NCBI GenBank assembly: GCA_964617735.1
Contig: CAZTXT010000002.1
Span: 12,536-76,535, forward strand
Origin: an uncultured Candidatus Saccharibacteria bacterium
GTDB lineage: Bacteria > Patescibacteriota > Minisyncoccia > Phycocordibacterales > DSPV01
Direction of reading: 5' to 3'
Length of the DNA stretch: 64,000 bases
Under the pieces are notes generated by a model that did no database searches, had not been told where the DNA came from, and was given only the letters and a program-made list of their open reading frames with translations. A program made the position numbers and the translations under genes. Below are positions 711 through 42,305 of the stretch, piece by piece (positions within the stretch are counted from its first letter, which is position 1; every line of letters starts with the position of its first letter).

Positions 711-767
711 AGTATAACGATTATTTTTTAATGCCCATCAGTATATCACTCTAGAGTGAGTTTTCGA

Positions 768-1136: not shown

Positions 1137-1172
1137 AGAAAAATCCTACCTCAAACCTTTTGAAATGCAATA

Positions 1173-9358: not shown

Positions 9359-9454
9359 AGGGTACGCCCATGATATACAAAATCTTCTGCGAGAGCAAGA
9401 AAAAAATCCCTCCGCGCGAGCAGAGGGATTTTGCATTGTGGAGACCAAAGAACT

Positions 9455-10492
9455 CTAAGATTCTTGAACGGCAGCGAGTTCTTGTTCGGAGACCGCTTTT
9501 GTGGCAGCCTCGCGTGCTGCGCGCACGCGCCAATAATCGAGCAAGAATGAAACACTCTCGTCGAACGTGTACACCGGCTCCCAGCCGGTGGCGTCGAGGA
9601 ATTTCTTCGTTTCGGGAACTTGGAGAGTAACGTCCGTAGGCCGCAAGAGCCTGCGATCGAGACGAGTGCGGATAGGAGCCTTCGCCTTCGAGATGAGCGT
9701 CTTGAGAAAATCACCGATGGTAACCGACTTGGTACCGCCGATGTTATACGCTTCACCGGGTTTACAGTGAAGTGTAGCCTCCCAATACGCACGCATCGCG
9801 TCGCGCACATCAACAACGGTCCTGATCGAATCAAGGTTCCCGTGAACAAGTTCATCCTGCAATCCATGCTCGATGCGCGCGACTTGCCGCGCGAATGCAG
9901 ATGAGAACAGATCCGCCCGACGCGGATTGATGTAAGTGAACATCCGCGTTCGAATGACCGGAATGCCGTAGGATTCAAAATAGACCTGACCCAAGAGGTC
10001 CTGGGTCACTTTAGAAACTGCATACGGACTTGCGGGCCGTATCGCAGCTTCTTCGTTAATCGGTATCTCATCTTCCCTCACCAAACCGTATACCTCTGAC
10101 GAGGAACACAGCTGAACAATGGGTTTGAGACGGAGTATTCGTATTCCCTCAAAGAGGTTCGTGGTGCTCATGATATTGTTGTGCAAGACCGCGATGGGGG
10201 TCTCGAATGAACACCGTACATTCGCATGCGACGCAAGATGGAATATTACATCAGGCTTAGACGCGATAAGCGCCAGCGTGACAGATCCCATGTCCAGAAG
10301 GTCACACTCGTGCAGGGTAACAGAACGACGGATATTCTGCAGATTGTCGTCCGAAGTGGTGCTGTGCCAACGCGAGAGTCCGTGGACTTCGACGTGGGGA
10401 TGCTCTCTGACGATATACTCGGCAAGGTAGCTGCCGCCCGAGCCGGTGATACCCGTGATGAGTACCCGTCTGATGCTTCTTTCATTATGCAT
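9455..10492 (-). CDS. GDP-mannose-dehydratase-family SDR, probably GDP-4-keto-6-deoxy-D-mannose reductase (Rmd-like)
   Basis: The N-terminus ITGITGSGGSYLAEYI parallels the Gmd ITGITGQDGSYLAELL motif. It is a paralog of the adjacent gmd and is divergently transcribed from it. This is the same arrangement as rmd-gmd in GDP-D-rhamnose loci. Confidence 0.55.
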   Translation of the reverse strand: MHNERSIRRVLITGITGSGGSYLAEYIVREHPHVEVHGLSRWHSTTSDDNLQNIRRSVTLHECDLLDMGSVTLALIASKPDVIFHLASHANVRCSFETPIAVLHNNIMSTTNLFEGIRILRLKPIVQLCSSSEVYGLVREDEIPINEEAAIRPASPYAVSKVTQDLLGQVYFESYGIPVIRTRMFTYINPRRADLFSSAFARQVARIEHGLQDELVHGNLDSIRTVVDVRDAMRAYWEATLHCKPGEAYNIGGTKSVTIGDFLKTLISKAKAPIRTRLDRRLLRPTDVTLQVPETKKFLDATGWEPVYTFDESVSFLLDYWRVRAAREAATKAVSEQELAAVQES

Positions 10493-10966: not shown

Positions 10967-12016
10967 ATGGCTACAAAAAGCAAAAAGAAAGTCGCGCTCA
11001 TTACCGGCATCACCGGGCAAGACGGATCATATCTAGCGGAGCTCTTGCTTGCAAAGGGTTACGACGTCCACGGTCTTATCCGCCGCTCATCCACGTTCAA
11101 CCACGATCGTATCAAACACATCTATGATTTCGTGCACCCCAAAAAGCTCCGCCTGCACTACGGTGATATCACCGATCTCTCATCGCTCGTGTCAATCGTC
11201 GCAAGCATACGACCTGACGAGCTCTATAACCTTGCCGCCCAAAGCCATGTAAAAGTCTCCTTCGAAACACCGGTCTATACTGGACAAGTCGATGCGATCG
11301 GCGTACTCAATACGCTCGAAGCGGTCAGGATCTTGAAACTCCCGACGAAGGTTTACCAAGCCTCCACCTCGGAAATGTACGCAGGGCATCCGAACGAGCT
11401 CCCCCAGGATGAACGAACTGCGTTCAGTCCGAAAAGCCCGTATGGCGCCGCGAAGCTCTATGCATTTCATCTGGCAAAAATCTATCGCGAGTCATACGGG
11501 ATGTTCGTCGTCAACGGCATTCTCTTTAATCATGAGAGCGAGCGGCGTGGAGAGAACTTCGTAACCCGAAAGATTACGCTCGGCATCAAAGAGATCCTTG
11601 CAGGAACCCGGAAGACCGTACGATTGGGGAACCTCGACGCTAAACGCGACTGGGGCCATGCGCAAGATTACGTGCGGGCGATGTATCTGATGCTCCAGCG
11701 CAAGAAACCCAGCGACTATGTCATCGCGACAGGCACGCAACGCACAGTCCGCGAATTCTGCGAACATGCCTTTAGGGAAGCGGGGATAAAACTCACGTGG
11801 TCAGGAAGGGGCTTGCATGAAAAAGGCATCGAAAAGAAAACGGGACGCGTACTAGTTGAGATAGATCCGGCATTCTTCAGGCCTAACGAAGTCTGGTCGC
11901 TGCAAGGCAATCCTAAAAGAGCTCGGCGAGAACTGAAATGGAAGCCTCGAATAGATTTCAGAACGCTGGTGAAACGAATGGTCAAAAGCGATCTGTCGAG
12001 CACGAAGCGCTTCTAG
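10967..12016 (+). CDS. gmd: GDP-mannose 4,6-dehydratase
   Basis: Canonical Gmd sequence (KVALITGITGQDGSYLAELLLAKGYDVHGLIRRSSTFNHDRI...), 349 aa. Confidence 0.93.
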   Translation: MATKSKKKVALITGITGQDGSYLAELLLAKGYDVHGLIRRSSTFNHDRIKHIYDFVHPKKLRLHYGDITDLSSLVSIVASIRPDELYNLAAQSHVKVSFETPVYTGQVDAIGVLNTLEAVRILKLPTKVYQASTSEMYAGHPNELPQDERTAFSPKSPYGAAKLYAFHLAKIYRESYGMFVVNGILFNHESERRGENFVTRKITLGIKEILAGTRKTVRLGNLDAKRDWGHAQDYVRAMYLMLQRKKPSDYVIATGTQRTVREFCEHAFREAGIKLTWSGRGLHEKGIEKKTGRVLVEIDPAFFRPNEVWSLQGNPKRARRELKWKPRIDFRTLVKRMVKSDLSSTKRF

Positions 12017-12020
12017 CCCC

Positions 12021-12851
12021 ATGATTTCAACACCGTCTCTAAAGATCATCCGTCCCAAAAAAACCTGGAGTCTCGCGGACTTGCGAGAGCTCTGGGAATA
12101 CCGCGAACTGCTCTACTTTTTCGCCTGGCGCGACCTTAAAGTGCGCTACAAACAAACCGTGATCGGCATACTGTGGGCGCTCTTCCAGCCATTTCTCACC
12201 ATGGTGGTCTTCTCGGTGTTCTTCGGCAAACTCGCGAAGATACCTTCCGAAGGCATCCCCTACCCTGTATTCGTCTATACGGGACTTTTGTTCTGGCAAT
12301 ATTTCTCAGGCGTGCTCGGGGACGCAAGCAACACGCTGGTTGCTAACGCTTCGATCGTCACCAAAGTATATTTTCCGCGCTTGCTGCTCCCGATCGCCGA
12401 CTCGATCACCAAGCTGGTCGATTTCGTGGTCGCATCGTTCATTCTCGCGGGGCTCATGATCTATTATCATTTCATTCCGAATCCCCTCAAGATCGCTATC
12501 GTTCCGCTCCTGGTACTAATTACCTTCCTCGCAGCGTCTGGTACGGGTCTCATTCTCGCTTCCATAAACGTCAGATACCGCGACGTACGCTATGTCCTTC
12601 CCTTCTTCATTCAATTGCTGTTGTTCGTTACGCCGGTGATCTACCCCTCATCGATTGCAGGGCGATTCGCCTGGGTGCTCTCCCTAAACCCGATGACGGG
12701 GGTCATCGGCGCCGCCCGCGCCGCCCTGTTGAACGTCTCTCCGATCGACTGGAATCTGCTTATATCCTCGCTCATCACGAGCACGGTGCTCTTTTTGCTG
12801 GGCGTTATCTTCTTTAAGAAAACGGAGCGCTATTTTGCTGACATCGTATAA
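12021..12851 (+). CDS. wzm: ABC-2 type polysaccharide export permease (Wzm/TagG-like)
   Basis: Six TM segments and an ABC-2 signature (WRDLKVRYKQTVIGILWALFQPF). Confidence 0.85.
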   Translation: MISTPSLKIIRPKKTWSLADLRELWEYRELLYFFAWRDLKVRYKQTVIGILWALFQPFLTMVVFSVFFGKLAKIPSEGIPYPVFVYTGLLFWQYFSGVLGDASNTLVANASIVTKVYFPRLLLPIADSITKLVDFVVASFILAGLMIYYHFIPNPLKIAIVPLLVLITFLAASGTGLILASINVRYRDVRYVLPFFIQLLLFVTPVIYPSSIAGRFAWVLSLNPMTGVIGAARAALLNVSPIDWNLLISSLITSTVLFLLGVIFFKKTERYFADIV

Positions 12852-12856
12852 CATCC

Positions 12857-14131
12857 ATGGAACCGATCATCGAAATAAAAAACCTTAGCAAGCGCTATCA
12901 GATAAACCGCGAACGCGGGGGGTATGTAGCGCTGCGTGACGTGATCACCCAAGTCGCGGCGCACCCGCTCACAATGCTTCGATCGAAAGCAAAATCGATC
13001 ATCGGGAAAAACACCAAAGAACCCTTTTTCGCCCTCAAGGATATCAACTTATCCGTGGGAAAAGGCGAAGTCGTCGGGATCATCGGCAAGAACGGCGCCG
13101 GAAAATCCACGCTTCTCAAGATCTTAACGGGCATCACTCCTCCTACGGAGGGCGAAGCGCGATTGCGAGGGAAAGTGGCATCGCTCCTTGAAGTCGGCAC
13201 TGGATTCCATCCGGAATTAACCGGACGAGAAAACATCTACCTCAACGGAGCGATCCTCGGCATGACTCGAAAAGAGATCGCGAAGAAATTCGATCAAATC
13301 GTGGAATTCTCCGGCATCGGGAAATTCCTCGACACTCCTGTTAAACGCTACTCAAGCGGAATGTATGTGCGACTCGCCTTTTCGGTCGCAGCGCATCTTG
13401 AGCCGGACATATTGCTCGTCGACGAAGTGCTGGCGGTTGGAGACGCGGAATTCCAGAAGAAATGCCTGGGTAAAATGGATGAGGTGACCAAGCAGGCGGG
13501 ACGCACCATAATCTTCGTCAGCCACAACATGGATGCCGTCAGTCGTTTATGCAAGACTACCCTCCTTCTCGATCAGGGTAAGGTCGTCGCCTATGGAGAT
13601 ACCGACGAAGTCATCGAACGATACTTAAGTGGAGGTTTTCGGGATGACGCAGGGCTCACGTTACCTCAAACCGACGGAGAAGTTACCATGCGCGATTTCT
13701 CGATACTACAGCATGGAAAAGAAGCTCAGAGCATCGACGGCGGGAGCCCGTTTCAAATACGCCTCGATTTTTCTATTGCACAGAAACTCAAATCATTTCG
13801 AGCCGGCATTTTTCTTTCGACACGCGCTGGCACGTTGATCTCCCGATCTTTCGTGCAGGATTACGCGCCGGCGCTCGAAGAGATCGCTCCCGGAAACTAC
13901 CGAACGATCTTAACGGTTCCAGCCAAACTCTTAATGGCTGGCGATTACGAGGTGGAAGCAAAACTCTTCTGTTTCGGCGTTAAAAGCTTTTTTGACGGAA
14001 AAAAGATTCAACAGAGCATAACCGTGCATACACCGAAGGAATACAACGAGCTCAAATCCAAAAGCGGGACAAAAGGATACTTTCTGATACCAGCGCCATG
14101 GACGATTGATTCAAAAAACCACCATGATTAA
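12857..14131 (+). CDS. wzt: polysaccharide ABC exporter ATP-binding protein (Wzt/TagH-like) with a C-terminal extension of about 170 aa
   Basis: Walker A GKNGAGKST, an LSGGM-like signature and a Walker B ILLVDE. The extra C-terminal domain is typical of Wzt substrate-recognition domains. Confidence 0.85.
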   Translation: MEPIIEIKNLSKRYQINRERGGYVALRDVITQVAAHPLTMLRSKAKSIIGKNTKEPFFALKDINLSVGKGEVVGIIGKNGAGKSTLLKILTGITPPTEGEARLRGKVASLLEVGTGFHPELTGRENIYLNGAILGMTRKEIAKKFDQIVEFSGIGKFLDTPVKRYSSGMYVRLAFSVAAHLEPDILLVDEVLAVGDAEFQKKCLGKMDEVTKQAGRTIIFVSHNMDAVSRLCKTTLLLDQGKVVAYGDTDEVIERYLSGGFRDDAGLTLPQTDGEVTMRDFSILQHGKEAQSIDGGSPFQIRLDFSIAQKLKSFRAGIFLSTRAGTLISRSFVQDYAPALEEIAPGNYRTILTVPAKLLMAGDYEVEAKLFCFGVKSFFDGKKIQQSITVHTPKEYNELKSKSGTKGYFLIPAPWTIDSKNHHD

Positions 14132-15167
14132 AGTGAAACTCACTACGCGAGACCCTTCCACTCCGATAATCCGGCAGACCCCGGGCAGTAGTGGGATCTG
14201 GGGCAATTGCCATTTCTTCGTTGATGATGACACCGACACATTCGACTGGTGGTTCGTATGGAATAATCTGCACCATCAAGAGAGTGCCGTAGGACCCCGA
14301 GAACATACGGTGCTCATGACCGGCGAGATCGACACTATGAAAACCTACCCACAATGGTATCTGAAGCAATTCGGGCACGTGATCTCATCGCAGCGCTTTC
14401 TCAAACACCCCCATCAGACCTACCGGCAAATATACCCCTGGATGATCGGACATATCGGATCGGGGTCTGGGATAGATCCAAAGGATTACCGGAAATACTT
14501 CACCCCGTATGAGACGCTTGCCGCGATGAAACCTCCGCAGAAAACGAAGCTGCTCTCGGTCATCACGTCATATAAAGAACGCATCCCGGCTCAAAAAACT
14601 CGGCATGAATTCATTGACGCGCTCAAGGCGCATTTTGGGGATCGGATGGATGTCTTCGGAGCCGGCACAAACTATATTCGCGATAAATGGGATGGGATTG
14701 CACCCTACCAGTACCATCTGGCCCTCGAGCACACACACGCTTCCGAGTACATCACCGAAAAACTCCCCGACGCGTATCTTGGATTCGCATTCCCCTTCTA
14801 CTATGGATGCTCCAATCTAGAGAAATATTTCGATTCGGACGCTTTCATCGCCATAGATATTCATGACCCCCAAGGAGCCATAGAGAAAATCGAACGAGCA
14901 ATTGCAGAGAATGTGTATGAAAAACGACAGGCAGCGATCCTAAAAGCGCGTTCGCTGATCCTCAATGAATACAACATGTTCGCGGTAATGGCTGACTTCT
15001 GCACCGCACACACTGAAACCGCTTCAGCACCATCAACCGTGACGCTAAAACCCGATGAGACCAAACCACTAACTACGCGGGTAGTCGCCCGATTGCGCTC
15101 GTTCACTATCCTCTATGCTCCGGTACGTTCGCTCTATCGGCTCTATCGCAAGATCCGGCATCAATAA
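14124..15167 (+). CDS. GT10-family alpha-1,3-fucosyltransferase-like glycosyltransferase
   Basis: YQYHLALEHTHASEYITEKL matches the GT10 YxFxLxFENSxxxxYxTEK donor-binding motif. The start was chosen at MIKVKLT (8-nt overlap with wzt); the track start is 14106. Confidence 0.55.
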   Translation: MIKVKLTTRDPSTPIIRQTPGSSGIWGNCHFFVDDDTDTFDWWFVWNNLHHQESAVGPREHTVLMTGEIDTMKTYPQWYLKQFGHVISSQRFLKHPHQTYRQIYPWMIGHIGSGSGIDPKDYRKYFTPYETLAAMKPPQKTKLLSVITSYKERIPAQKTRHEFIDALKAHFGDRMDVFGAGTNYIRDKWDGIAPYQYHLALEHTHASEYITEKLPDAYLGFAFPFYYGCSNLEKYFDSDAFIAIDIHDPQGAIEKIERAIAENVYEKRQAAILKARSLILNEYNMFAVMADFCTAHTETASAPSTVTLKPDETKPLTTRVVARLRSFTILYAPVRSLYRLYRKIRHQ

Positions 15168-15186
15168 CCGGCTCTCTCGATTACCC

Positions 15187-16152
15187 ATGAAAAGAACGAC
15201 AGCGACAAAAAAATATCTGATATTCGGCAACGGTTTCATCGCAAGCCACTATGCGCGGCATCTCATGGCGCACGGTGCCTTAGTGTATGTGACATTCCAC
15301 ACTAAGAAAAATTGGGATCTTCCCTCTAAAATCCAACTCAAAACACCCCATGACGTGAAAGATGCGGAGCAGCTGCTGCGATCGGTTGCGCCCAACTACA
15401 TAATCCTCACCCAAGGGCTTACCTTCATTCCCGACAACGATAGAGAATTACTCAAATCAGTGGAGTCAAACGTCTTATCCCCGCTGACCATTCTCGAAGC
15501 TCTCTACCGACTACGCCAGAGAGGAGAGGGTCGAGGGGTCAAGAAGATATTGACCTTCGGTTCTGCTGCTGAATATGGAGACAGTGATACGAGAAAATGG
15601 AAAGAGAACGCCTTCGACACGAAACCCAATTCATTTTATGGGCTCGTGAAGCATTGGCTCTTCGATACCGCGCGCTTCTACGCTTCACTGGGTGTTCCAT
15701 GCGTCCATATCCGCCATTTCAACACGGCCGGCCCAGGACAGTCCTCATCGTTCGTCATCTCCGCTTTCTGCAGGCAAATAGCCCAAATGGAGAAGCGTGG
15801 CAAGAAAGGTATCCTTACGTTGGGTGATCTCAAACAGAAACGAGACTTCGTTGATATACGTGACGCGCTACGGGCATATGACTTGATCATCGGGCGCGCA
15901 CGGGGAGGACAGATAGTGAATCTGTGCACGGGCAAAACCCATGCGGTCGAAGACATCGTGCAGATACTCTCCAAGCTCTCGAAGGTTCCCTTCAAAACGA
16001 AGGTCAATACGAAACTCTTCGCGCACAAGCGCAGGCCCAACAAAGTACTAGCCGGCTCTCCCGTATGGCTTTCGTCGCACGGCTGGAAACCACGCTTCAC
16101 GCTTCCGCAAACGGTTGAGACAGTCTTAGAATATTGGCGAAAAACTATATGA
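15187..16152 (+). CDS. NAD-dependent epimerase/dehydratase family protein (nucleotide-sugar reductase/epimerase)
   Basis: Rossmann motif IFGNGFIASHYARHL, SDR-like length and a YxxxK region. The start was set at MKRTTATKK (15187); the track start is 15115. Confidence 0.65.
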   Translation: MKRTTATKKYLIFGNGFIASHYARHLMAHGALVYVTFHTKKNWDLPSKIQLKTPHDVKDAEQLLRSVAPNYIILTQGLTFIPDNDRELLKSVESNVLSPLTILEALYRLRQRGEGRGVKKILTFGSAAEYGDSDTRKWKENAFDTKPNSFYGLVKHWLFDTARFYASLGVPCVHIRHFNTAGPGQSSSFVISAFCRQIAQMEKRGKKGILTLGDLKQKRDFVDIRDALRAYDLIIGRARGGQIVNLCTGKTHAVEDIVQILSKLSKVPFKTKVNTKLFAHKRRPNKVLAGSPVWLSSHGWKPRFTLPQTVETVLEYWRKTI

Positions 16153-18059
16153 AAAAACGGACAAAAAAAAATAGTGCGCTGATCATCGGGAACCGCCCAG
16201 TCGGCGATGGACACCCCGTATTCATCATTGCCGAAGCTGGTATCAACCACAACGGCAGCCTTACCCTCGCCAAAAAGCTCATCGACGCAGCGGCTGCATC
16301 GGGAGCCGATGCCGTGAAATTCCAACTACGGCACCTCGATGATCTGTATGTAAAGTCTGCTCGGGAAAATATCCACGGGGAAGATATCGGAACGCAGTAT
16401 CTCCTCTCTCTCATCAAAGACGCGGACTTGCCGAGCCGGCACTTCAAAGAACTCGCTCGCTACGCGCGCGAGAAGAACATCATGTTCCTCTGCACGCCCT
16501 GGGACAAGAAAAGCGCGGACTTTCTGGAGGCTTTAGGCGTGCCCGCTTACAAAGTGGCATCAGCAGACCTTATTAATTTCGAACTCCTCGAACATCTCAC
16601 AAAGAAAAAGAGGCCGATGATCATCTCGACGGGCATGGCAAGCGCCGGCGAGATCGAACGTACCATACGATTCCTCGATGATCGCGGCGCTCTATATGCG
16701 CTGCTGCACTGCAACAGCACTTATCCTGCTCATACCAAAGACCTTAATCTTCATTTCATCGCACGCCTCAAAGAAATGAGCGGGGGCACGGTTGGTTATT
16801 CGGGGCATGAACTCGGTATAGCGCCGACGCTCGCGACGATACCCCTAGGAGCTCGAATCATCGAACGACATTTGACGCTCGATCGGACCATGACCGGCCC
16901 TGACCACGCCGCGAGCCTTGAGCCCGAAGAGTTCAAACAACTGGTCCGCGATATCCGCCGCATCGAAGAGGCACTCGGCAGCGGAAAGAAATTTGTGACC
17001 GCAGGCGAATACATCAATCGGAAAAATCTTGGGAAAGGCCTGGTAGCCACAAAAGCGATACGCAAAGGCGACGTGATCACTCGTGCCATGGTCGCGGCGA
17101 AAAGTCCCGCAAAAGGCATTTCGCCACAAGAACTCTACGCCCTAGTGGGGAAAAAGGCCCGGAGGGATCTGCAGAAGGACGAGTATTTCACGGAGGAGGA
17201 CCTTGGCAAAAAACCCGTGCGCAAAAGCGGCTTCCCTGAAAGCCGCTGGGGTATCATCGCTCGCCCGTACGATATCGGTATGATGAGCGCAGGCATAAAA
17301 CCAACCGTGGTGGAGTTACATTTCAGCTCACGGGACCTCGACCACTCATTCATCCTCCCCGACTTCCCCAACGCCGAGCTTATCGTGCATCTGCCGGAGC
17401 TTTACGGGACCGAACTGCTCGACCTTTGTTCACCCGATGAGAACGTGAGGAAAAAAGGAATAGAGGACGTCAACCGCGGACTTAATCTCGTGCGGAAACT
17501 GCGCAAACATTTCGGTAAGACACCTCGGCGCGTGAAGACAGTCGTGCACGTCGGCGGCATGACCTACGGAAACTTTGCTACGCTAACCAAACGTAAAGCG
17601 ATGTACGATAATCTCGCACGTTCGCTCAAGCAACTTAACTTGAACGGCATAGAAATACTGCTTGAGAACCTCCCTCCGTACCCGTGGTACAAGGGCGGAC
17701 AATGGTTCTCTAATACATTCATGGATGCCGATGAGATGGCTCAATTTGCTAAAAAGACAGGCTTAGGCCTCTGCTATGACTCGAGCCATGCCCAACTGTA
17801 TTGCAATTTCGCAAAAAAAGATCCCGTGGCCTTCTTCAAGATCCTCCGTCCCTTTGTGCGCCACATCCATCTCTCCGACGGAGGTGGAACTGACGGCGAG
17901 GGATTGCAGATTGGGAATGGCGATGTGCCCTGGAAGAAACTCTTGCCAGAGGTGAAAAAAACTAAAGTATCATACACGCCGGAGATATGGATGGGGCATC
18001 GAAACCACGGCGAAGGATTCTGGATCGCCCTTAAACAACTTAAGCGGTTGGGTTTATAA
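16134..18059 (+). CDS. fusion protein: NeuB-type nonulosonic-acid synthase (PEP-condensing TIM barrel plus SAF domain) with a C-terminal xylose-isomerase-like TIM barrel
   Basis: The N-terminal 350 aa or so are NeuB/PseI/LegI-like (PVFIIAEAGINHNGSLTLAKKLIDAAAASGADAVKFQ... then a SAF segment). The C-terminal 290 aa or so carry an AP-endonuclease-2/xylose-isomerase-like HIHLSD motif. An alternative start at ATG 16149 gives an ATGA overlap with the upstream stop. Confidence 0.7.
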   Translation: MAKNYMKKRTKKNSALIIGNRPVGDGHPVFIIAEAGINHNGSLTLAKKLIDAAAASGADAVKFQLRHLDDLYVKSARENIHGEDIGTQYLLSLIKDADLPSRHFKELARYAREKNIMFLCTPWDKKSADFLEALGVPAYKVASADLINFELLEHLTKKKRPMIISTGMASAGEIERTIRFLDDRGALYALLHCNSTYPAHTKDLNLHFIARLKEMSGGTVGYSGHELGIAPTLATIPLGARIIERHLTLDRTMTGPDHAASLEPEEFKQLVRDIRRIEEALGSGKKFVTAGEYINRKNLGKGLVATKAIRKGDVITRAMVAAKSPAKGISPQELYALVGKKARRDLQKDEYFTEEDLGKKPVRKSGFPESRWGIIARPYDIGMMSAGIKPTVVELHFSSRDLDHSFILPDFPNAELIVHLPELYGTELLDLCSPDENVRKKGIEDVNRGLNLVRKLRKHFGKTPRRVKTVVHVGGMTYGNFATLTKRKAMYDNLARSLKQLNLNGIEILLENLPPYPWYKGGQWFSNTFMDADEMAQFAKKTGLGLCYDSSHAQLYCNFAKKDPVAFFKILRPFVRHIHLSDGGGTDGEGLQIGNGDVPWKKLLPEVKKTKVSYTPEIWMGHRNHGEGFWIALKQLKRLGL

Positions 18060-18063
18060 TCAC

Positions 18064-18864
18064 ATGGTGCGCGCGAACAAACAAAAGAACAAACAACTTG
18101 CACGATTCTACGACACGGTGTACCGCAAGGGTGAGAAAAAACACCACACTGAATTTCTCTTTGGAAGATCGAAACTTCCTCCCGATGAGACTGCCGCGCT
18201 CGCTGCGATCAACTGGAAAGGAAAAACGGTGCTCGACGTTGGCTGCGGCACGGGTCTTATGGCATACGAGGTCGCCCGCCGCGGCGGGAAGAGAGTTGTC
18301 GGCATCGATTACAGCAGAGACGGCATCGCACACGCACGTGCGCAATACTCCCACGCGAATCTCGAATATCGCTGCGAGGATGTAGCAGACCATCATGGGC
18401 GCTACGATATCATCGTATCCTTGGGAACCCTCGAGCACATTGACGATCCGCTCTCGACGCTCAAGCAACTCAAGAGGATGCTCACTCCCAAAGGAATGCT
18501 TGTGCTCACCTCCCCCAATTGGCTAAACCCCCGCGGCTATATCTTGCAAACGCTGCTTCAGCTCTTCGATGCACCGATAACGCTCGCTGACATACACTAC
18601 CTGACACCGGTCGAATATAACGCATTCGCAAAGAAACTGGGCATGAAACTGACCTGGTCGACGTTCGATTTCAACTGGGCGCACGGCCCCAAGCTCATCA
18701 AAGACCTCAAGCGCCGCCTCCCCAACGTCTTCCGGGATATGAAGCTCCTCAAAAAACGAAAACAGATCGATGCCTTTATCCGCTGGATTGAAACGCATGT
18801 CTTGCCGTTCGATAACACGCTGCCGTGGAGCGGTGCGACTGGACTGTATATATTGAAACGATGA
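18064..18864 (+). CDS. class I SAM-dependent methyltransferase
   Basis: Motif I VLDVGCGTGLMAYEVA and motif II-like blocks. Confidence 0.8.
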   Translation: MVRANKQKNKQLARFYDTVYRKGEKKHHTEFLFGRSKLPPDETAALAAINWKGKTVLDVGCGTGLMAYEVARRGGKRVVGIDYSRDGIAHARAQYSHANLEYRCEDVADHHGRYDIIVSLGTLEHIDDPLSTLKQLKRMLTPKGMLVLTSPNWLNPRGYILQTLLQLFDAPITLADIHYLTPVEYNAFAKKLGMKLTWSTFDFNWAHGPKLIKDLKRRLPNVFRDMKLLKKRKQIDAFIRWIETHVLPFDNTLPWSGATGLYILKR

Positions 18865-19697
18865 ACACGGTAAAAGAAAACCTCAAACGCGTGCCGGTAA
18901 TCGGCAGAGCATCGGTTTCCCTCTACAGCAAACTCATCCGCGCCAAAAATCGGAAGCTCATTCGCAGGAATGCTGAACTGAAGAATGCCTTCGCGGGAAG
19001 GCGCTGCTTCATCATCGCAACCGGACCCTCGATAAAGACGCAGGACCTCAAACCTCTTTCGGGGGAGCTTTGCATCAGCGTGAGCAATTTCTTCCTGCAT
19101 CCCGATTTTAAGATCATACGACCACAATTCCATCTCTTCGTGGCCTCCCATCCGCCCGTAACCGAGGAACAATACACTGCTTATTTCAAGGACGCCGAAA
19201 AGCATTTCCCGGAAGGGCAGAAGGTTCTCGTTTCGATCACCGACAAGCATATCGTAGATAAATCGTCAGTATTCAAAAAACAAAATGTCTACTATTACTC
19301 TCTCGGGCACAAACCACTCAACGACACGATCGATTTTTCCCGAGATCTTCCGATCATCCAGACCAGCGCTCAAACTGCCAGCTACCTCGCCCTCTATCTC
19401 GACGCTTCGGCTCTATTTCTCTTAGGGTGCGACCATGACTGGATCCTTCATGTCGGTGAGACCCGGCACTTTTACAGCGAGAAAGATAGCTCACTCTCTC
19501 AAGCCGGGTATAGTGAATGGAGCGAGGACTTTGGACGAGAATGCGAGGCGTACGTAAAGCTCTGGGATGTATACCGAAAACTCAAACGCTACACGGTTTC
19601 TCGAGGCATTGCGATCACCAACTGCACCAATGGCGGGCTGCTCGATCTCTTTCCACGGAGAACGCTCGAGTCCGTGATCAAAAACAAAACACTATGA
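18862..19697 (+). CDS. DUF115 (Maf/MptE-like) family protein, putative nonulosonate-type transferase
   Basis: CFIIATGPSIK resembles the GPSL-type motif of DUF115/motility-accessory-factor proteins. The start was set at ATG 18862, giving an ATGA overlap with the upstream stop. Confidence 0.4.
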
Positions 19698-20494
19698 GCT
19701 TATCGCATCGAGTAGAGCGCATAAAACGTGCATGGTCCGAGCGCAAACGACAGCGGAAAGGAGAATCGCTGATAAAAAAATATGCTCGATTCCCGCGCTA
19801 CACGCCAACGACACTGCACTGGGATGGCATCGAGTTGTCGGCCCCTGACGGCATTTCAGTTGCGCATCAGATCAACGAGGTATTGATGCTGGAGAAATTA
19901 AGATTTGATACCCCATCAAATCCGATCATCTACGATTGCGGCGCGAATGTCGGTGTCGTAAGCATCTATTTTAAAAAGCTCTTTCCGCAAGCAAAGATAA
20001 TCGCGTTCGAAGCAGATACAAAAATCGCTTCATTCCTGAAAGAAAACCTCAGAAAAAACAAAGTCGAGGATATATCCGTCGTGGAAAAAGCCGTATGGGT
20101 CGATTCCAAGGGGGTTGATTTTGGCTCTGAAGGAGCCGACGCGGGCTCGATCCATCGAACGCAGGAGAAAACCAGAGTACCGTCAGTGCGACTGCGCGAT
20201 TACCTTGCCTCGGAAAAACGCATCGCGATGCTCAAGATCGACATCGAAGGGGCGGAACTCGAAGTCCTGGAAGACTGCCGGGATGCGCTCAACGGAGTCG
20301 AGAGAATCTTCGTCGAATTCCATTGCGAGAAATCAAAACCACAAAAACTCGACCGTATGTTAAGCCTGCTCTCGGAAAACGGGTTCAGATATTTCATAGA
20401 GAATACGACCGTACTAAAGCATCCATTCATCGATATCCCCAAAGGCCCTACGGATCTTCAGGTCAATATCTATGCATATCGCCGCAAGAATTAA
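19694..20494 (+). CDS. FkbM-family methyltransferase
   Basis: IYDCGANVGVVSIYF and a C-terminal FkbM-like region. The start was set at the internal ATG 19694 (ATGA overlap). Confidence 0.65.
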   Translation: MSLSHRVERIKRAWSERKRQRKGESLIKKYARFPRYTPTTLHWDGIELSAPDGISVAHQINEVLMLEKLRFDTPSNPIIYDCGANVGVVSIYFKKLFPQAKIIAFEADTKIASFLKENLRKNKVEDISVVEKAVWVDSKGVDFGSEGADAGSIHRTQEKTRVPSVRLRDYLASEKRIAMLKIDIEGAELEVLEDCRDALNGVERIFVEFHCEKSKPQKLDRMLSLLSENGFRYFIENTTVLKHPFIDIPKGPTDLQVNIYAYRRKN

Positions 20495-21482: not shown

Positions 21483-22742
21483 ATGCGCATTTTAGAGATC
21501 AATACTATAGATACTCGAGGAGGGGCAGCCAAAGTCGCCTGGACGCTCAAAGGAGAGTTTGAGCGAGCGGGGAACGTCGTCGACTTCTTCGTAAAGCACC
21601 GATACTCGAACGATCCGCATACCTTTGTAATGCGCTGGCCGAGCACCATGAGCCGATCACTGCAGAGAATCCTCAGAAAAGATGTGGGGAGTTTCCTCGA
21701 GAATAAATTGCGCCCGTATCTGGCCAACGATTTAGAGTGGTTCGGCACCGAGAAATTGCTCGAGACCGAAGCTTTTCAAAAAGCGGATATCATCCACTGC
21801 CACAATCTCCATGGAAATTATTTCAGCCTCAAAACCCTAGAGCAGATGTCGGCCCAAAAACCCGTAATCTGGACACTCCACGATATGTGGGCGCTGACGG
21901 CGCATTGCGCGCACACCAAACTTGCGATAGGAAACGATGGATTTTTCCCGTGCGAAAGCCGCAACGCCTATCAATCGCTCTGCTGGCCCAACGAAGCGCA
22001 CCTCACCTCGGTCAAGAAAGAAACCTACGCGCGCTCCACGCTCCATATCGTAGCACCGTGCCACTGGCTGGATCGAAAAGTCTCGGAGAGCATTCTTCAG
22101 CATATGCCTCGCAGTGTGATACCCAATGGTATAGATGTCTCGCTATTCTCGCCAAAAGATAAGAAGGCCCTGCGAGAACGCCTGAATATACCACCTGAAA
22201 GCTGCGTAATACTATTCTCAAGCGCAAGCGGCGCGAGCAGAGAAAAAGGAGGAGACGAGCTGCGCACGATCACACAACATTTTTCAAAGAGAACAGATGT
22301 GCTATTTCTCCTGATCGGAGACACTAAAGAAGTCATGGGCGAGCAGGTACGGTCAATACCGTTTATGGAAAAGCAAAGCGATCTCGCTGATCTCTATGCA
22401 GCCGCAGATATATTTCTTTTCCCTTCTCATGCGGAAACATTCCCTCTTTCAGTACTTGAAGCGATGAGTTCAGGACTTCCTGTCGTTGCGTTCAATGTAG
22501 GAGGAATCAAAGAGGCCGTCACTGATGGCGAGACAGGGTTCCTTTCTGACCCCCTCGATACTGATTCACTGATCAACGCAATCGAAAGACTCATCGGGAT
22601 GGGAGCGAGCGGCCGCAAGAAAATGGGCGAAACTGCTCGGGCCCGCGCGGTCAAAGATTTCAGTCAAACGCGCATGGCCGAGAGCTACAAAGCGCTCTAC
22701 CAACAGGTGCTCACCGAAAGAGCATCGACAAAACATTCATGA
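21483..22742 (+). CDS. GT4-family glycosyltransferase
   Basis: GT-B architecture with a C-terminal EX7E-like region (FPSHAETFPLSVLEAMSSGLPVVA). Confidence 0.8.
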   Translation: MRILEINTIDTRGGAAKVAWTLKGEFERAGNVVDFFVKHRYSNDPHTFVMRWPSTMSRSLQRILRKDVGSFLENKLRPYLANDLEWFGTEKLLETEAFQKADIIHCHNLHGNYFSLKTLEQMSAQKPVIWTLHDMWALTAHCAHTKLAIGNDGFFPCESRNAYQSLCWPNEAHLTSVKKETYARSTLHIVAPCHWLDRKVSESILQHMPRSVIPNGIDVSLFSPKDKKALRERLNIPPESCVILFSSASGASREKGGDELRTITQHFSKRTDVLFLLIGDTKEVMGEQVRSIPFMEKQSDLADLYAAADIFLFPSHAETFPLSVLEAMSSGLPVVAFNVGGIKEAVTDGETGFLSDPLDTDSLINAIERLIGMGASGRKKMGETARARAVKDFSQTRMAESYKALYQQVLTERASTKHS

Positions 22743-23548
22743 TCGTCGTCACCCTACAAGGAGGTCTCGGTAATCAACTGTTCCAATATGCCGCGGGACG
22801 CGCTTTTGCCGCGAAACTCAAAACAAAGGTTTCTTTCGACCCCGCATGGTTCGCCGCAAGTAAACAGCGAACGCTTAAACTCGATCAGTTCAAACTCTCG
22901 CCTGATACGCAAATAGAAATAGGTGTCGGCAAACGCCTTCGGACACCCAAGCACGTGCATGAACGTCTTCCCGGCTTCGATCCTATCCTCACACTTACCG
23001 ATAATTGCATCTACGACGGGTATTGGCAGAGTAGCAAGTACTTCGAGGATATTGGGCAAGAGATCCGCACGGAATTGGAGCTTAAGAATCCGCCAAGCAA
23101 AAGAATGCAGGAGTGGGCAGATGTGATAGCAAGTTCCGCGGGCAGTGTTTCCCTGCATATCCGGCGCGGCGATTACCTCTGGGAAAAACATCAATCGGTA
23201 CTCGGCGTCCTGCCAATCGCCTATTATAAGGAAGCGATCAAAATGCTTGCCGAACGAATAGGCACTCTAACCCTCTTCGTTTTCTCCGACGATATCCCGT
23301 GGGCAAAAAAGAATCTTGACTCCCCTTTTAAGACCTACTTCGTCTCCGACCCCACACTGATCGACACCGAAGAACTGTTCCTGATGAGCCACTGCAGACA
23401 CCATATCATTGCGAACTCCTCCTTCAGTTGGTGGGCGGCGTGGATTAATCAAAAACCAGAGAAGCTAGTGCTTGCGCCCAAAAATTGGTTCAAAGACAAA
23501 GAGCGAGAGCCTCGAGATCTAATTCCGGATACATGGATAACACTCTAG
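22739..23548 (+). CDS. GT11-family alpha-1,2-fucosyltransferase-like glycosyltransferase
   Basis: Motif I GGLGNQLFQYA, HIRRGDY and a C-terminal NSSFSWWAAW motif, all GT11 hallmarks. Confidence 0.7.
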   Translation: MIVVTLQGGLGNQLFQYAAGRAFAAKLKTKVSFDPAWFAASKQRTLKLDQFKLSPDTQIEIGVGKRLRTPKHVHERLPGFDPILTLTDNCIYDGYWQSSKYFEDIGQEIRTELELKNPPSKRMQEWADVIASSAGSVSLHIRRGDYLWEKHQSVLGVLPIAYYKEAIKMLAERIGTLTLFVFSDDIPWAKKNLDSPFKTYFVSDPTLIDTEELFLMSHCRHHIIANSSFSWWAAWINQKPEKLVLAPKNWFKDKEREPRDLIPDTWITL

Positions 23549-24573
23549 CAAAACCGAAAATAAGCGTGCTCATGCCGGTTTATAATGGCGAACGTTTCAT
23601 CGCCGAGTCCATCCACAGCGTGTTCAACCAGACGTTCACCGATTTTGAACTGTTAGTGATAGACGATGGATCGACCGATCAAAGCGCAGCGATCGTCAGC
23701 TCATTTAAGGACAAACGCATCAGACTCGTGCGCAATGAGAAAAACCGGGGACTTGTCGCGGTCCGCAATCAAGCAATCGAACTCTCCCGAGGCGAGTACC
23801 TCGCATGGCTCGATGCCGATGACATCGCACTGCCTGATCGGCTCAAGCAGGAGAGCTCGTTTCTCGACGCACACCATGAGGTAGGGCTTATCGGATGCGC
23901 CGCCGCCATCATCGACGAGGAGGGCAAACGAACGGGTATCGTCTGGAAGAATGCCACCCCACCCGAGAAGATGTCGGTGATGCTCCTCTTCCACAATTGC
24001 TTCACCCAATCGTCGGTAATGCTCCGCCGACCCGCTCTGCTGAATGAGAAGTATCGCGAAGGCTTCGCGCCGGCAGAAGATTACGAACTCTGGACCCGGA
24101 TTGCTGCCACAAAGAAATGCATGAATCTCCCTAAGGTCCTCACTCTCTACCGCAAACATAGAAGCGTCTCTGGATCGAATACTGAAAAAGGGCGGGTTGC
24201 GATCGAGAGAATTACCCGAAGCGAGTTGCAGAAACTGGGGATCAACCCAACAGGAGAGGAATACCGTCTGCACCGAACCAACTATGGATATGACGGGAAC
24301 GACCTGTATAAATTCCTGGATGCTCGGGAATCCTGGCTCATGCGCCTAAAGGAAGCGAATACATCTGCACAGCGCTTCGATACGAAAATATTCGACGAAG
24401 TCCTTGCCGAGCGCTGGCTTGCATCCTGCAGTGCTAATGCAAGCGGTGGCCTGCGCGTCTGGAGACGATTCTGGGATTCTGAACTCCTTAGAGGAGTCAA
24501 AATCGGGCAGCAGCTGATGAGTATCCTGAAATTCGCAATCAAGTGCAGCGTGCGTGTACGCCGGCGTCAATAA
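23533..24573 (+). CDS. GT2-family glycosyltransferase
   Basis: ISVLMPVYNGERFIAESIHSVFNQTFTDFELLVIDDGSTD (GT-A DXD region). The start was set at MDNTLAK (23533); the track start is 23485. Confidence 0.8.
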   Translation: MDNTLAKPKISVLMPVYNGERFIAESIHSVFNQTFTDFELLVIDDGSTDQSAAIVSSFKDKRIRLVRNEKNRGLVAVRNQAIELSRGEYLAWLDADDIALPDRLKQESSFLDAHHEVGLIGCAAAIIDEEGKRTGIVWKNATPPEKMSVMLLFHNCFTQSSVMLRRPALLNEKYREGFAPAEDYELWTRIAATKKCMNLPKVLTLYRKHRSVSGSNTEKGRVAIERITRSELQKLGINPTGEEYRLHRTNYGYDGNDLYKFLDARESWLMRLKEANTSAQRFDTKIFDEVLAERWLASCSANASGGLRVWRRFWDSELLRGVKIGQQLMSILKFAIKCSVRVRRRQ

Positions 24574-24584
24574 ATCCCATCGAA

Positions 24585-25508
24585 ATGCTCATTACCGCAC
24601 TAAGACGAGTAAAGAGAATGGTCCGGGAAACTCGAAAAGCCCTCGCAACACGCTGGCTTTACTTTAGAGCGAACCACCGCAAGAGAGAACACCTCGTCAT
24701 CACTGATTCCGGCCAAAAGGGCGACGATATCTATCCGATGTCGTGTAAAGCCCGCGGATTCTTCTCCTTATTCAACGAGATACTCGATACGATAGCTCTG
24801 TATGGAACAAGCGATATCAGCGTGGTACTCAATCATACGCATTACAACGAACGAGAGACAGACAACATGTGGGATTATTATTTCGAGCCAGTCCAGAATG
24901 TGTCTAAACGCAATTACAAGGCATCGTTCAATATTCGGCCGTTCCGGGACCATCGGATCATGGAGAGTCCAAAGAAGATTGCGCTCTTGCATGAGGTACT
25001 GCAAAAAAGAGTCGTGGTGAAAAAAGAGATACAGCAGGACGCAGATGCTTTTTATGCACAGCACCTTTCAGGACATACCGTCATCGGCGTCCACTTCCGC
25101 GGATACGACGTCGCGGATAATTTTGCTATCGTCTCTCACCTTCTGCGCAAAGCTCCACCCGAGGATTATTGCTCCGTGCTCGATTCAACCCCTTTTGACT
25201 ATGTCTTTCTCGCCACCGATGATATGCCAGCGTACGAATTCTTCCAAAAACGCTATCCGGGTAAAGTCATCTCCTTTTCCCGCCTGAGAGATGACACGAA
25301 GAAAGTCGTTCTCGCGCATAGCGACAAATTCTCCAAAAAAGAATTAGGGAGAGAAGTGCTCATCGACTGCCTGTTGCTCTCTCGCTGTAATATACTGCTC
25401 CACGGCAGCTCAAACATTCCCGCAGCCGCCAAATTCCTCAACCCTGCATTGAAAACCGTGAACCTCGATGTTCTGGCGCTAGAAAAAGAAAAACGGGCCG
25501 GCCGCTGA
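24585..25508 (+). CDS. putative glycosyltransferase of the fucosyltransferase-like (GT11/GT23/GT65) superfamily
   Basis: GVHFRGYD parallels the HxRRGD motif. VFLATDD and HGSSNIPAAAKFL parallel GT11 motifs III and IV. The similarity is weak and taken from memory. Confidence 0.35.
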   Translation: MLITALRRVKRMVRETRKALATRWLYFRANHRKREHLVITDSGQKGDDIYPMSCKARGFFSLFNEILDTIALYGTSDISVVLNHTHYNERETDNMWDYYFEPVQNVSKRNYKASFNIRPFRDHRIMESPKKIALLHEVLQKRVVVKKEIQQDADAFYAQHLSGHTVIGVHFRGYDVADNFAIVSHLLRKAPPEDYCSVLDSTPFDYVFLATDDMPAYEFFQKRYPGKVISFSRLRDDTKKVVLAHSDKFSKKELGREVLIDCLLLSRCNILLHGSSNIPAAAKFLNPALKTVNLDVLALEKEKRAGR

Positions 25509-29209: not shown

Positions 29210-29820
29210 TCGGAGATATCTTTTATTTCCGGATTGAGCCTGTCTAGGTATCTCACCTTGTCGGGAATATCCTTAATGACGGTCGCTCCCATGCCGATTA
29301 CAACATAATCACCGACCGTAATGTGGTCGCGGATCAAGGTACCCATTCCAACAAACGTACTCTCTCCGATGACCACCCCTCCGCCGGTCGCAACGTTAGG
29401 ATTTAAGTCTGAATGATCCCCGACCACGTTGTCATGATCCACATTGACATGGTTATTGATGAGCACGTTACTGCCGATCTTAGAATTGACGTTGATGTGA
29501 CTGAACGCCCCCACCATGACGTTTTGACCCAGCGAGACGCTATCCTCCACAAATGCTTCTGGGTGAATCGCGTTTACAAATTTCGCGCCCGATCTCTTCA
29601 GAAGCTCATAGGCCTCCCGTCGAAATTGTATGTTGCCGATAGCCACAAAAAAATGATGATCTGGTACGAACTTCTTGAACTCTTCCGTCTTACCCAGCAC
29701 GTGCGGACCCTCGATCTGCTCATCTAAAAAGCCCACGACCCGATTCTTAGGATCATGCTCTAAAATGTTCTTGATGACGAAACCGTTTTGCCCCCCACCA
29801 ACAATAATTATTTTTTTCAT
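29206..29820 (-). CDS. hexapeptide-repeat (left-handed beta-helix) sugar N-acetyltransferase (PglD/NeuD/WbpD-like)
   Basis: An N-terminal Rossmann-like KKIIIVGGGQNG is followed by imperfect hexapeptide repeats. The start was set at MKKIII (29820); the track start is 29868. Confidence 0.7.
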   Translation of the reverse strand: MKKIIIVGGGQNGFVIKNILEHDPKNRVVGFLDEQIEGPHVLGKTEEFKKFVPDHHFFVAIGNIQFRREAYELLKRSGAKFVNAIHPEAFVEDSVSLGQNVMVGAFSHINVNSKIGSNVLINNHVNVDHDNVVGDHSDLNPNVATGGGVVIGESTFVGMGTLIRDHITVGDYVVIGMGATVIKDIPDKVRYLDRLNPEIKDISD

Positions 29821-29907
29821 ATCAAGGCCAGATGAGCCTACGTTACCGATGAACGGCTCATAAATCAAGTCTCTAGTTCCATTTTACACTCCCAATTATA
29901 GCATGCT

Positions 29908-32623: not shown

Positions 32624-32624
32624 A

Positions 32625-38040: not shown

Positions 38041-38041
38041 A

Positions 38042-42302: not shown

Positions 42303-42305
42303 GAA

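Follow-up and report, generated by a model that had tools for sequence, protein, structure and literature searches.

Nonulosonic acids influence the face that microbes show to hosts, phages and one another, and the pathways that make them are predicted through homologs of NeuB, NeuC and NeuA. In the characterised routes to the deaminated nonulosonic acid Kdn (2-keto-3-deoxynononic acid), those of Bacteroides thetaiotaomicron and Prymnesium parvum, mannose-6-phosphate (Man-6-P) is converted to Kdn-9-phosphate (Kdn-9-P), which then undergoes a phosphatase step, and free mannose is not a substrate for the P. parvum synthase (PMC6200933). A further gene set was described in bloodstream isolates of Serratia marcescens, whose KL1/KL2 capsule loci hold neuA and neuB as the sole sialic-acid genes identified. 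The NeuB of these isolates has an additional COG1082 ('sugar phosphate isomerase/epimerase') domain, and what they produce is KDN, identified against standards, together with ~5% Neu5Ac. Deletion of neuB abolishes both sialic acid and capsule; of the enzyme the authors remark only that it 'may have additional functional properties' (PMC9000132). This was the single mention of the architecture returned by full-text literature searches for a characterised fusion of NeuB to a TIM barrel; an apparent match in the lipocone paper proved to have no bearing on it. The follow-up Serratia paper adds nothing on the COG1082 domain, and a large phylogeny paper on nonulosonate (NulO) synthases makes no mention of an extra TIM domain. 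Here we describe such a fusion on a 64,000-nucleotide stretch of DNA (the window) from an uncultured Candidatus Saccharibacteria bacterium (Patescibacteriota; contig CAZTXT010000002.1). We found an intact NeuB-type synthase joined to an intact-looking metal-dependent barrel, and among 77 related loci a CMP-sugar synthetase was usually encoded near this pair, a NeuC-type epimerase in none.

The fusion gene occupies 16149..18059 (+) and encodes 636 aa from its likely ATG start. In the open reading frame (ORF) listing of the window the frame runs without interruption over 16134..18059 (+), giving 641 aa from a TTG at 16134. The ATG at 16149 overlaps the stop codon of an upstream short-chain dehydrogenase/reductase (SDR) gene (ATGA), and the public gene call (P0001, 636 aa), which is 100% identical to the fusion in the window, starts there. 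Residue numbers refer to the 636-aa protein; adding 5 converts them to ORF numbering. Pfam searches of the ORF (in ORF numbering) gave NeuB at 49-286 (E 4e-82, 275.7 bits against a threshold of 22.1, full model 1-241 of 241), SAF (PF08666) at 303-357 (E 2.3e-10, 41.3 bits against 21) and AP_endonuc_2 (PF01261) at 423-619 (E 3e-21, 76.7 bits against a cutoff of 31.1). On the window these correspond to the phosphoenolpyruvate (PEP)-condensing NeuB barrel (16278..16991, +), which is further defined by residue alignment and invariant columns, the SAF or antifreeze-like domain of NeuB-type synthases (17040..17204, +) and a xylose-isomerase-like (beta/alpha)8 barrel (17244..18047, +), also delineated by structure prediction, Foldseek and conservation over 147 representatives, which place it in a sub-type termed 'HEN' below. 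AlphaFold2 modelled the full-length protein with a pLDDT of 89.6 and a pTM of 0.72, and the C-terminal domain alone with 91.1 and 0.91 and eight beta/alpha repeats. The initial annotation had proposed that one 641-aa ORF joins NeuB and SAF to a C-terminal barrel, which is borne out by the ORF listing and by Pfam on all three domains. The HxHxxD-type motif it had assigned to the C-terminal domain was found as HIHLSD at nt 17862-17879, and its placement of that domain in the xylose-isomerase-like superfamily agrees with the PF01261 match, the AlphaFold2 fold and Foldseek.

We aligned the NeuB module to Neisseria meningitidis NeuB, Campylobacter jejuni PseI and Bacillus subtilis SpsE and found its catalytic and metal residues intact. 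E29, K57, Q59, K135, S138, S218, H220, E239, H241 and D252 correspond to E25, K53, Q55, K129, S132, S213, H215, E234, H236 and D247 of the meningococcal enzyme, and these ten are invariant in 27 fusion homologs. D140 takes the position of E134 of N. meningitidis NeuB, as Asp also does in a Leptospira NeuB, and the position of Arg314, which contacts the N-acetyl group in the meningococcal protein, is not conserved in the fusion. Scores fell below the NCBIfam equivalog cutoffs for both NeuB (TIGR03569, 340.5 vs 399.65) and PseI (TIGR03586, 269.5 vs 340.25). By its domain match, residues and SAF domain the fusion is thus classed as a member of the NeuB family and not as a NeuB or PseI equivalog. 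None of the usual sets of substrate-supplying partners (NeuC, PseB-C-H-G or LegB-C-H-G) was found next to the synthase. Characterised NeuB, PseI and LegI are stand-alone proteins, as the initial annotation had noted for the canonical sialic, pseudaminic and legionaminic acid synthases.

A fusion of this kind might reflect a sequencing, assembly or frameshift artefact, and the existence of split NeuB and TIM gene pairs in some genomes could be read that way. We therefore consider here how far the architecture recurs. NeuB, SAF and AP_endonuc_2 were present together in 120/120 of the best homologs (47-100% identity, ~620-650 aa) from a 5.8-billion-protein collection, one of which (P0102) has an extra methyltransferase domain. 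These came from Patescibacteria (Taylorbacteria, Paceibacterota), Rokubacteria, Chloroflexota, the cultured Orenia marismortui, Nanoarchaeia and Helarchaeota. Invariant residues flank the domain junction on both sides in the 27-sequence alignment of fusion homologs, and the identical 636-aa protein was called on the NCBI contig and on an independent Logan assembly. In a scan of one genome per species, at least 552 genomes encode a relative of the C-terminal domain. For the best loci, ORFs were called and clustered in 80, and the 77 with the anchor gene were counted; this census is dominated by metagenome-assembled genomes (MAGs) of Chloroflexota. The TIM domain was fused to NeuB in 76/77, across many phyla. 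Of the split pairs, one (L007) consists of a 346-aa NeuB gene followed after a 3 bp gap by a 275-aa TIM gene, and another (L006) of a NeuB/SAF gene followed by a TIM-CBS gene; split pairs beside fusions are a classic signature of two functionally linked enzymes. The artefact raised in the initial annotation is effectively refuted by the continuous architecture in homologs and loci, by the two assemblies and by the split pairs themselves, and the orthologous fusions it had suggested looking for recur as the same three-domain protein in hundreds of genomes, far beyond chance. The two-enzyme fusion is real and widely conserved. It is also abundant in databases already, as 'N-acetylneuraminate synthase family protein', and has been noted once in print, so it does not amount to a new category of system; we regard it as a variant, as yet uncharacterised, within a known kind of enzyme, to which the window adds a Patescibacterial member in an ATP-binding cassette (ABC)-transporter glycan cluster.

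HMMER searches with the C-terminal domain alone against 1.84 billion representative proteins returned 696 matches at E<=1e-3 and 133 at E<=1e-30. The architectures found were NeuB-SAF-TIM (~630 aa), CBS-NeuB-SAF-TIM (~750 aa), TIM alone (~275 aa) and TIM-CBS. The barrel therefore represents a small clade dedicated to NeuB, nearly always fused or adjacent to it. Foldseek searches of the PDB with the C-terminal model gave 207 matches at E<=1e-3, and all of the 50 listed were xylose-isomerase-like or Endonuclease IV (Endo IV)-type TIM barrels or DUF692/MbnB relatives. UlaE, ketose 3-epimerases, MJ1311, YcjR, Endo IV and MbnB scored similarly (TM-score 0.55-0.67, 12-18% identity; ketose 3-epimerases 12-16% in the structural alignments), and the best PDB sequence match was the uncharacterised MJ1311 (E 3e-4). 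An MbnB-like oxidase role, prompted by a weak PDB sequence match, was set aside, as MbnB enzymes act on peptides and the gene context offers no support. NCBIfam models for fructoselysine 3-epimerase, IolO and CbiR reached 18-22 bits against cutoffs of 105-305. Family-level membership was found neither among ketose or pentulose-phosphate 3-epimerases (best model 22.3 bits vs 305) nor among Endo IV/CbiR phosphoesterases (CbiR model 18.5 bits vs 105), and on these scores the domain is assigned to the PF01261 superfamily and to no characterised family within it.

The Glu-Asp-His-Glu metal positions of the superfamily are present in the window protein as E506 (LLENLPP), D544 (YDSSH), H574 (HIHLSD) and E612 (TPEIW). 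Over 147 diverse domain sequences, H414, D544, H547, H574, E584 and E612 were 100% conserved and D577, E389, D396, H617 and R372 were 95-99% conserved; with H391, H467 and E506 these make up the conserved barrel residues of the window protein. Two sub-types were apparent. The first, with H467/E506/N507 (HEN, 61/147 representatives), is found in fusions of 600-700 aa and in stand-alone proteins, has no CBS domain, and takes in the window protein, Orenia, a Helarchaeota protein and essentially all 77 census loci. In the second (NQT, 86/147) Asn/Ser, Gln and Thr stand at 467, 506 and 507, and its members are mostly CBS-NeuB-SAF-TIM proteins of Proteobacteria and cyanobacteria (for example Ensifer and Sporolactobacillus; P0149-P0414). 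In the window the defining residues lie at nt 17547-17549 (467) and 17664-17669 (506/507) on the + strand. Thus the first metal-ligating catalytic Glu of the superfamily is Gln in ~58% of clade representatives, and the residue that serves epimerases as catalytic base appears dispensable in more than half of the clade. Alignments by hhalign to E. coli Nfo and UlaE were used for motif equivalences alone. H467, E506, D544, H547, H574 and E612 match H109, E145, D179, H182, H216 and E261 among the nine His/Asp/Glu ligands of the trinuclear metal site of Endo IV, and H414 probably corresponds to H69. UlaE lacks the beta2 and beta3 histidines that are present in the clade. Judged from these alignments, the His-rich site of the window TIM domain is more elaborate than the single-metal site of sugar 3-epimerases.

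A CTP_transf_3 gene was the commonest neighbour of the fusion in the census (63/77 loci by clustering, at -1 in 46), and phmmer with an Orenia NeuA seed detected members of the cytidylyltransferase family in 67/77. By phmmer or seed search, NeuC-like and KdsD-like genes were each found in 0/77 of the related loci, and a DegT aminotransferase lay within six genes in 7/41 loci with full flanks. A KpsC/KpsS-like Capsule_synth protein was encoded in 39 loci (at +1 in 34). Other common neighbours were adh_short, SDR or GFO oxidoreductases, methyltransferases, genes for the synthesis of 3'-phosphoadenosine-5'-phosphosulfate (PAPS) and sulfotransferases. In Orenia, Xanthomonas campestris and Comamonas aquatica the gene lies in flagellin-glycosylation islands with Maf/MptE-like proteins, and in marine Synechococcus in a KpsC/S and sulfotransferase locus. 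On a chromid of Ensifer canadensis it directly follows genes for ManC/phosphomannose isomerase (PMI) and a cytidylyltransferase, and ManC/PMI is found at -3 in two Nitrospirae loci. The conserved core is a NeuA-like gene with NeuB-TIM, ringed by ulosonic-acid transferases and tailoring enzymes.

Taken as a whole, these observations are best explained, though we say so tentatively, by a bifunctional Kdn-type ulosonic-acid synthase whose TIM domain would hydrolyse a phosphoester. The NeuB and SAF module would condense PEP with a manno-configured aldose or its phosphate, forming a 2-keto-3-deoxy nonulosonic acid, and the metal-dependent barrel would perform the step next to this condensation. We regard it as probable, if not strongly so, that the pathway yields a deaminated, Kdn-type nonulosonic acid in CMP-activated form, because the conserved partners include neither NeuC-type epimerases nor aminosugar genes and the Serratia NeuB with its COG1082 domain is needed for KDN. 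The initial annotation had expected a non-standard nonulosonic acid. This fits in so far as the product is probably not Neu5Ac, pseudaminic (Pse) or legionaminic (Leg) acid, but the best lead, from the mannose-centred contexts (ManC/PMI in Ensifer and Nitrospirae, gmd in the window) and the Serratia precedent, is the already known Kdn, possibly O-methylated.

More guardedly, the TIM domain may be what dephosphorylates Kdn-9-P. The NeuB domain would then convert Man-6-P and PEP to Kdn-9-P, and the TIM domain would release Kdn and inorganic phosphate, replacing the HAD phosphatase of the Bacteroides pathway. Three considerations lead us to favour hydrolysis. With this step included, the two-gene module would match the known Kdn pathway activity for activity, three in all; Man-6-P, a central metabolite, is to our knowledge the sole manno-sugar that cells contain in abundance, and some genomes have a PMI gene beside the module; and the conserved site looks more like those of Endo IV-type multi-metal hydrolases than those of epimerases. 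It is conceivable, and a shade too early to call likely, that the fused barrel represents an ulosonate-9-phosphate phosphatase outside the HAD family that has so far escaped notice, or some other phosphoesterase releasing the sugar; NeuA and NeuB-TIM would then suffice, as two genes, to lead from central metabolism to a deaminated nonulosonic acid in CMP-activated form.

The absence of NeuC-type genes from the window and from all 77 loci can also be accounted for if the TIM domain is a metal-dependent aldose(-phosphate) 2-epimerase or aldose-ketose isomerase that makes the manno-configured substrate from Glc/GlcNAc-type sugars or fructose-6-phosphate, replacing NeuC or LegG. This is essentially what the initial annotation had in mind for the 6-carbon substrate, its other option being the 9-carbon product. 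The domain finds its best matches in structure and profile among sugar 3-epimerases, enzymes that remove a proton adjacent to a carbonyl (UlaE, D-psicose/tagatose 3-epimerases, YcjR), the window protein has the full tetrad, LegB-, LegC- and LegH-like genes but no LegG are found in the window, and a promiscuous 2-epimerase would explain the KDN and minor Neu5Ac of Serratia. However, the first Glu, which is the essential base of ketose 3-epimerases, is Gln in most representatives in the same NeuA and NeuB context, and all epimerase-family scores are far below cutoff. A mannose-forming isomerase would be redundant because Man-6-P is a central metabolite and a PMI gene lies beside the fusion in Ensifer and Nitrospirae; 6-phosphate substrates would, besides, still leave the pathway short of a phosphatase. 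The absence of NeuC and the structural matches thus speak for this part of the initial annotation, and the Gln substitution and the His-rich, Endo IV-like site speak against it. We consider such a role plausible, though less likely than not, and rank it as the main rival, just below phosphoester hydrolysis.

The oxidoreductases near the fusion allow for another activity, in which the TIM domain would epimerise, isomerise or dehydrate next to the carbonyl of the 9-carbon product or of a keto intermediate supplied by a neighbouring NAD(P) oxidoreductase, yielding a non-standard stereoisomer or modified ulosonic acid. An NAD(P) oxidoreductase of the SDR, adh_short or GFO/IDH/MocA type was found within two genes in 39/59 loci and within four in 38/49 loci with full flanks, and the SDR gene of the window is translationally coupled to the fusion. 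Pairing of a dehydrogenase with a xylose-isomerase-like barrel is well established in the Iol, Ycj and Lgd systems (IolG/IolE-IolI, YcjS/YcjR, LgdA/LgdB), and YcjR is among the structural matches. The oxidoreductases come from three unrelated families, though, and none lay within four genes in 11/49 loci with full flanks; none was seen beside the Ensifer fusion, and for Serratia no sialic-acid genes beyond neuA and neuB are reported. Being so patchy, they look like lineage-specific tailoring enzymes, and Serratia makes ordinary KDN. Chemistry of this sort on the product or a keto intermediate therefore seems unlikely.

Several results weigh against a Kdn-type synthase with a phosphatase barrel. 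The phosphatase role is a prediction, and the closest structures and profiles are sugar epimerases and not phosphoesterases. Foldseek gave UlaE an E of 8.5e-11 and Endo IV 4.5e-08; hhalign of the family profile against single E. coli sequences, a weak comparison, gave 82% probability for UlaE and 13% for Nfo; and the top two NCBIfam matches of the TIM domain are epimerases, with CbiR third. The equivalents of Endo IV D229 and H231 (D582/E584) are uncertain. KdsC-type HAD phosphatases do occur in 7/77 loci, and the frequent oxidoreductases would fit a TIM domain that acts on keto sugars. Bacterial NeuB, PseI and LegI, where characterised, act on unphosphorylated sugars. The likeness of the fusion to the Serratia enzyme rests on domain composition and not on sequence. 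Within the window, no CTP_transf_3 cytidylyltransferase was detected by Pfam on ORFs >=150 aa (~1.2-49 kb) or by tblastn of the window with 86 family members and the Orenia NeuA, which agrees with the initial annotation that no CMP-nonulosonate cytidylyltransferase is visible there. Lastly, LegC-, NeuD/PglD- and dehydratase-like genes in the window may leave an aminated substrate possible at this locus.

The fusion of the window sits in a co-directional (+) string of genes in the order gmd, Wzm, Wzt, GT10-like glycosyltransferase, SDR, fusion, class-I methyltransferase, MptE-like protein, FkbM methyltransferase and polysaccharide deacetylase, followed by GT4, GT11, GT2 and NodZ-like transferases. 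The four upstream genes, assigned by Pfam and NCBIfam, span 10967..15167; gmd (GDP-mannose 4,6-dehydratase) scored 501 bits against an equivalog cutoff of 415, and the Wzm/Wzt ABC transporter (12021..14131, +, Pfam) includes the C-terminal glycan-binding domain of Wzt (Wzt_C). The SDR gene (15115..16152, +) encodes an NAD-dependent member of the epimerase/dehydratase family by Pfam, with a weak NCBIfam match (LegB, 62 bits), and orthologs 53-55% identical are found at -1 in relatives from Patescibacteria, Methanosarcinales and Desulfobacterales. Directly downstream lies the conserved class-I S-adenosylmethionine methyltransferase (18064..18864, +, Pfam), whose orthologs occupy +1 or +2 in relatives at 58-78% identity. 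In some archaea it is fused C-terminally to the synthase-TIM protein, as in a Woesearchaeota genome (L087 5816..8707; P0102; 959-963 aa), which ties the neighbouring methyltransferase of the window to the same pathway. The next gene (18825..19697, +) encodes an MptE-like (Maf/DUF115-type) protein with a weak Pfam match (21.7 bits), a candidate ulosonic acid transferase; its orthologs in L010-L014 are 47-59% identical, and that of L013 scored above the Pfam threshold (39.2 vs 34.6). It is followed by the FkbM-family methyltransferase (19517..20494, +; Pfam, and NCBIfam TIGR01444 at 96 bits vs 37.7). In the closest relatives, L010-L015, which come from Taylorbacteria, other Patescibacteria and a Methanosarcinales MAG, the SDR, methyltransferase and MptE-like genes have syntenic orthologs (47-78% identity), which makes a Patescibacterium the probable source of the window. 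L010, the nearest of these, has a CTP_transf_3 gene two genes upstream of the fusion. Homologs of NeuC, KdsC, KdsD and ManC were not detected in the window by Pfam over the same ORFs or with tblastn or phmmer seeds. For a Kdn-type product, we would expect CMP activation by a cytidylyltransferase encoded elsewhere in the genome, probable O-methylation by the adjacent methyltransferase, because this gene is conserved and sometimes fused, and transfer by the MptE-like protein onto a glycan exported by Wzm/Wzt.

Further from the fusion, the window holds a LegC-family aminotransferase (26766..27935, +, 363 bits, just under cutoff), a NeuD/PglB/VioB (NeuD/PglD-family) acetyltransferase (29206..29868, -, above cutoff), a 4,6-dehydratase-like SDR (9455..10492, -, NCBIfam), a NUDIX-GNAT fusion protein (29908..30753, +) and a second NUDIX protein (30805..31356, -), the last two assigned by Pfam and NCBIfam. 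With LegG and NeuC not found in the window, this set could indicate a legionaminic-acid-type synthase that uses a 2,4-diacetamido-2,4,6-trideoxyhexose made by the LegB-like, LegC-family and NeuD/PglD-family enzymes, with a NUDIX protein releasing the sugar and the TIM domain performing C2 epimerisation. These genes are 6-13 kb from the fusion, some of them on the opposite strand, and they are not conserved beside it in L010-L015 or across the family. Together with gmd, the LegC-like, NeuD/PglD-like and dehydratase-like genes could equally serve GDP-N-acetylperosamine synthesis or a bacillosamine/legionaminic precursor, and the Arg that binds the N-acetyl group in meningococcal NeuB is not conserved in position. 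A legionaminic-acid-type activity is thus improbable, the most so of the activities weighed here. Independently of this, the NUDIX-GNAT and NUDIX proteins could be nucleotide-sugar hydrolases with an N-acetyltransferase, a logic like that of PseG and PseH.

Other features of the window concern its glycan machinery more generally. An O-antigen-ligase-like (Wzy_C) protein of 775 aa with TPR repeats is encoded at 7121..9448 (-, Pfam). Its presence together with Wzm/Wzt, in a Patescibacterium probably without an outer membrane, looks like O-antigen-style machinery for another surface polymer. The gmd (10967..12016) and GT10-like (14106..15167) genes and the GT11 and NodZ-like (fucosyltransferase-type) genes at 22739..23548 and 24543..25508 (all +) suggest a fucosylated or 6-deoxyhexose-rich glycan. 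A second glycosylation block at 36985..48151 (-) contains two PMT_2 (GT39/83-like) membrane transferases, GtrA and several GT2 and GT4 genes, including a 722-aa double GT4, and is followed by a Lamin-tail-domain protein (48189..49016, Pfam). Three ORFs of 331-370 aa (5874..6986, 31661..32656 and 35543..36646, all -) had no Pfam match.

Some of the related loci showed further features. KdsC-type phosphatase is fused to a second CTP_transf_3 (~400 aa, NeuA-KdsC-like) in L029, L044, L059 and L064, at ~3000-4400 and position -5, and KdsC-type phosphatases are also present in L043, L037 and L017; the NeuA-KdsC-like fusions suggest a second, phosphorylated ulosonate pathway in those clusters. Sugar kinases adjoin the fusion in others, as a CBS-GHMP kinase directly upstream or an HldE-like PfkB kinase/nucleotidyltransferase (L069 7582..8946, L022; L036 and L045 ~12288..13832), hinting at phosphorylated sugars that feed the pathway. 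In Chloroflexota (loci such as L047, L059, L071, L086 and L089) and Synechococcus KORDI-100 (L095) we found a conserved cassette of PAPS synthase, adh_short, CTP_transf_3, NeuB-TIM, KpsC/KpsS-like transferase, methyltransferase and sulfotransferases, which points to sulfated and methylated ulosonic-acid polymers. Sialylated and sulfated extracellular polymeric substances have been reported in granular sludge (PMC10483923), which chimes with these sulfotransferase cassettes. The flagellin islands of Xanthomonas campestris (L093) and Comamonas aquatica (L094) encode a Rieske or ring-hydroxylating oxygenase (721..1866 and 1..827, respectively) along with CBS-NeuB-TIM, a cytidylyltransferase, several methyltransferases and a 640-656 aa MptE-like protein. 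The oxygenase recalls the Rieske-type CMP-Neu5Ac hydroxylase.

A large and phylogenetically broad set of NeuB proteins, from at least 552 species representatives, thus works without NeuC and carries an extra catalytic-looking domain. Knowing the function of this domain would correct the blanket annotation 'N-acetylneuraminate synthase' and allow Kdn-type glycans, often methylated or sulfated, to be predicted in Chloroflexota, candidate phyla radiation bacteria, marine Synechococcus and clinical Serratia; production of CMP-Kdn from a compact pair of genes could follow. If the barrel is indeed a phosphatase, a two-gene route would operate in hundreds of mostly uncultured lineages (Patescibacteria, Chloroflexota, Desulfobacterota, archaea) and would also serve Serratia, Xanthomonas and Comamonas, in capsules, O-antigen-like glycans and flagellin glycosylation.

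Among described systems, the Serratia KL1/KL2 NeuB has the same domain composition as the fusion, is paired with a NeuA-type cytidylyltransferase, has no NeuC and is needed for a KDN glycan. It belongs to a Wzy-type capsule locus of a gammaproteobacterium, whereas the window is an ABC-transporter glycan cluster of a Patescibacterium with no adjacent neuA. The Kdn pathway of Bacteroides and Prymnesium (Kdn-9-P synthase BT1714, HAD phosphatase BT1713 and CMP-Kdn synthetase) resembles the fusion loci in using a NeuB-family synthase and a cytidylyltransferase without a NeuC-type step. Its synthases are stand-alone proteins and its phosphatase, where known, is a KdsC-type HAD enzyme; the fusion has a TIM barrel in its place, and neither the window nor 70/77 related loci contain KdsC-type genes. 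The adjacent CMP-sugar synthetase of that pathway, present in 63-67/77 related loci, is absent from the 64-kb window. With the xylose-isomerase-like barrels (UlaE, ketose 3-epimerases, YcjR, MJ1311, Endo IV, CbiR, MbnB) the TIM clade has in common the fold and the E/D/H/E metal positions, and with Endo IV and MJ1311 also the DxxH and HxxD motifs and the beta2 and beta3 histidines; unlike this kin, it bears a signature of its own (WGxxxRxxD, ENLPPxPW, DGEGLQIG, PEIWxGH). Stand-alone NeuB, PseI, LegI and SpsE (PDB 1xuu, 8h2c, 1vli; E ~1e-51 to 1e-54) share with the fusion the NeuB barrel, the SAF domain and the catalytic and metal residues. Unlike these synthases, the fusion has an additional catalytic-looking domain of 275 aa.

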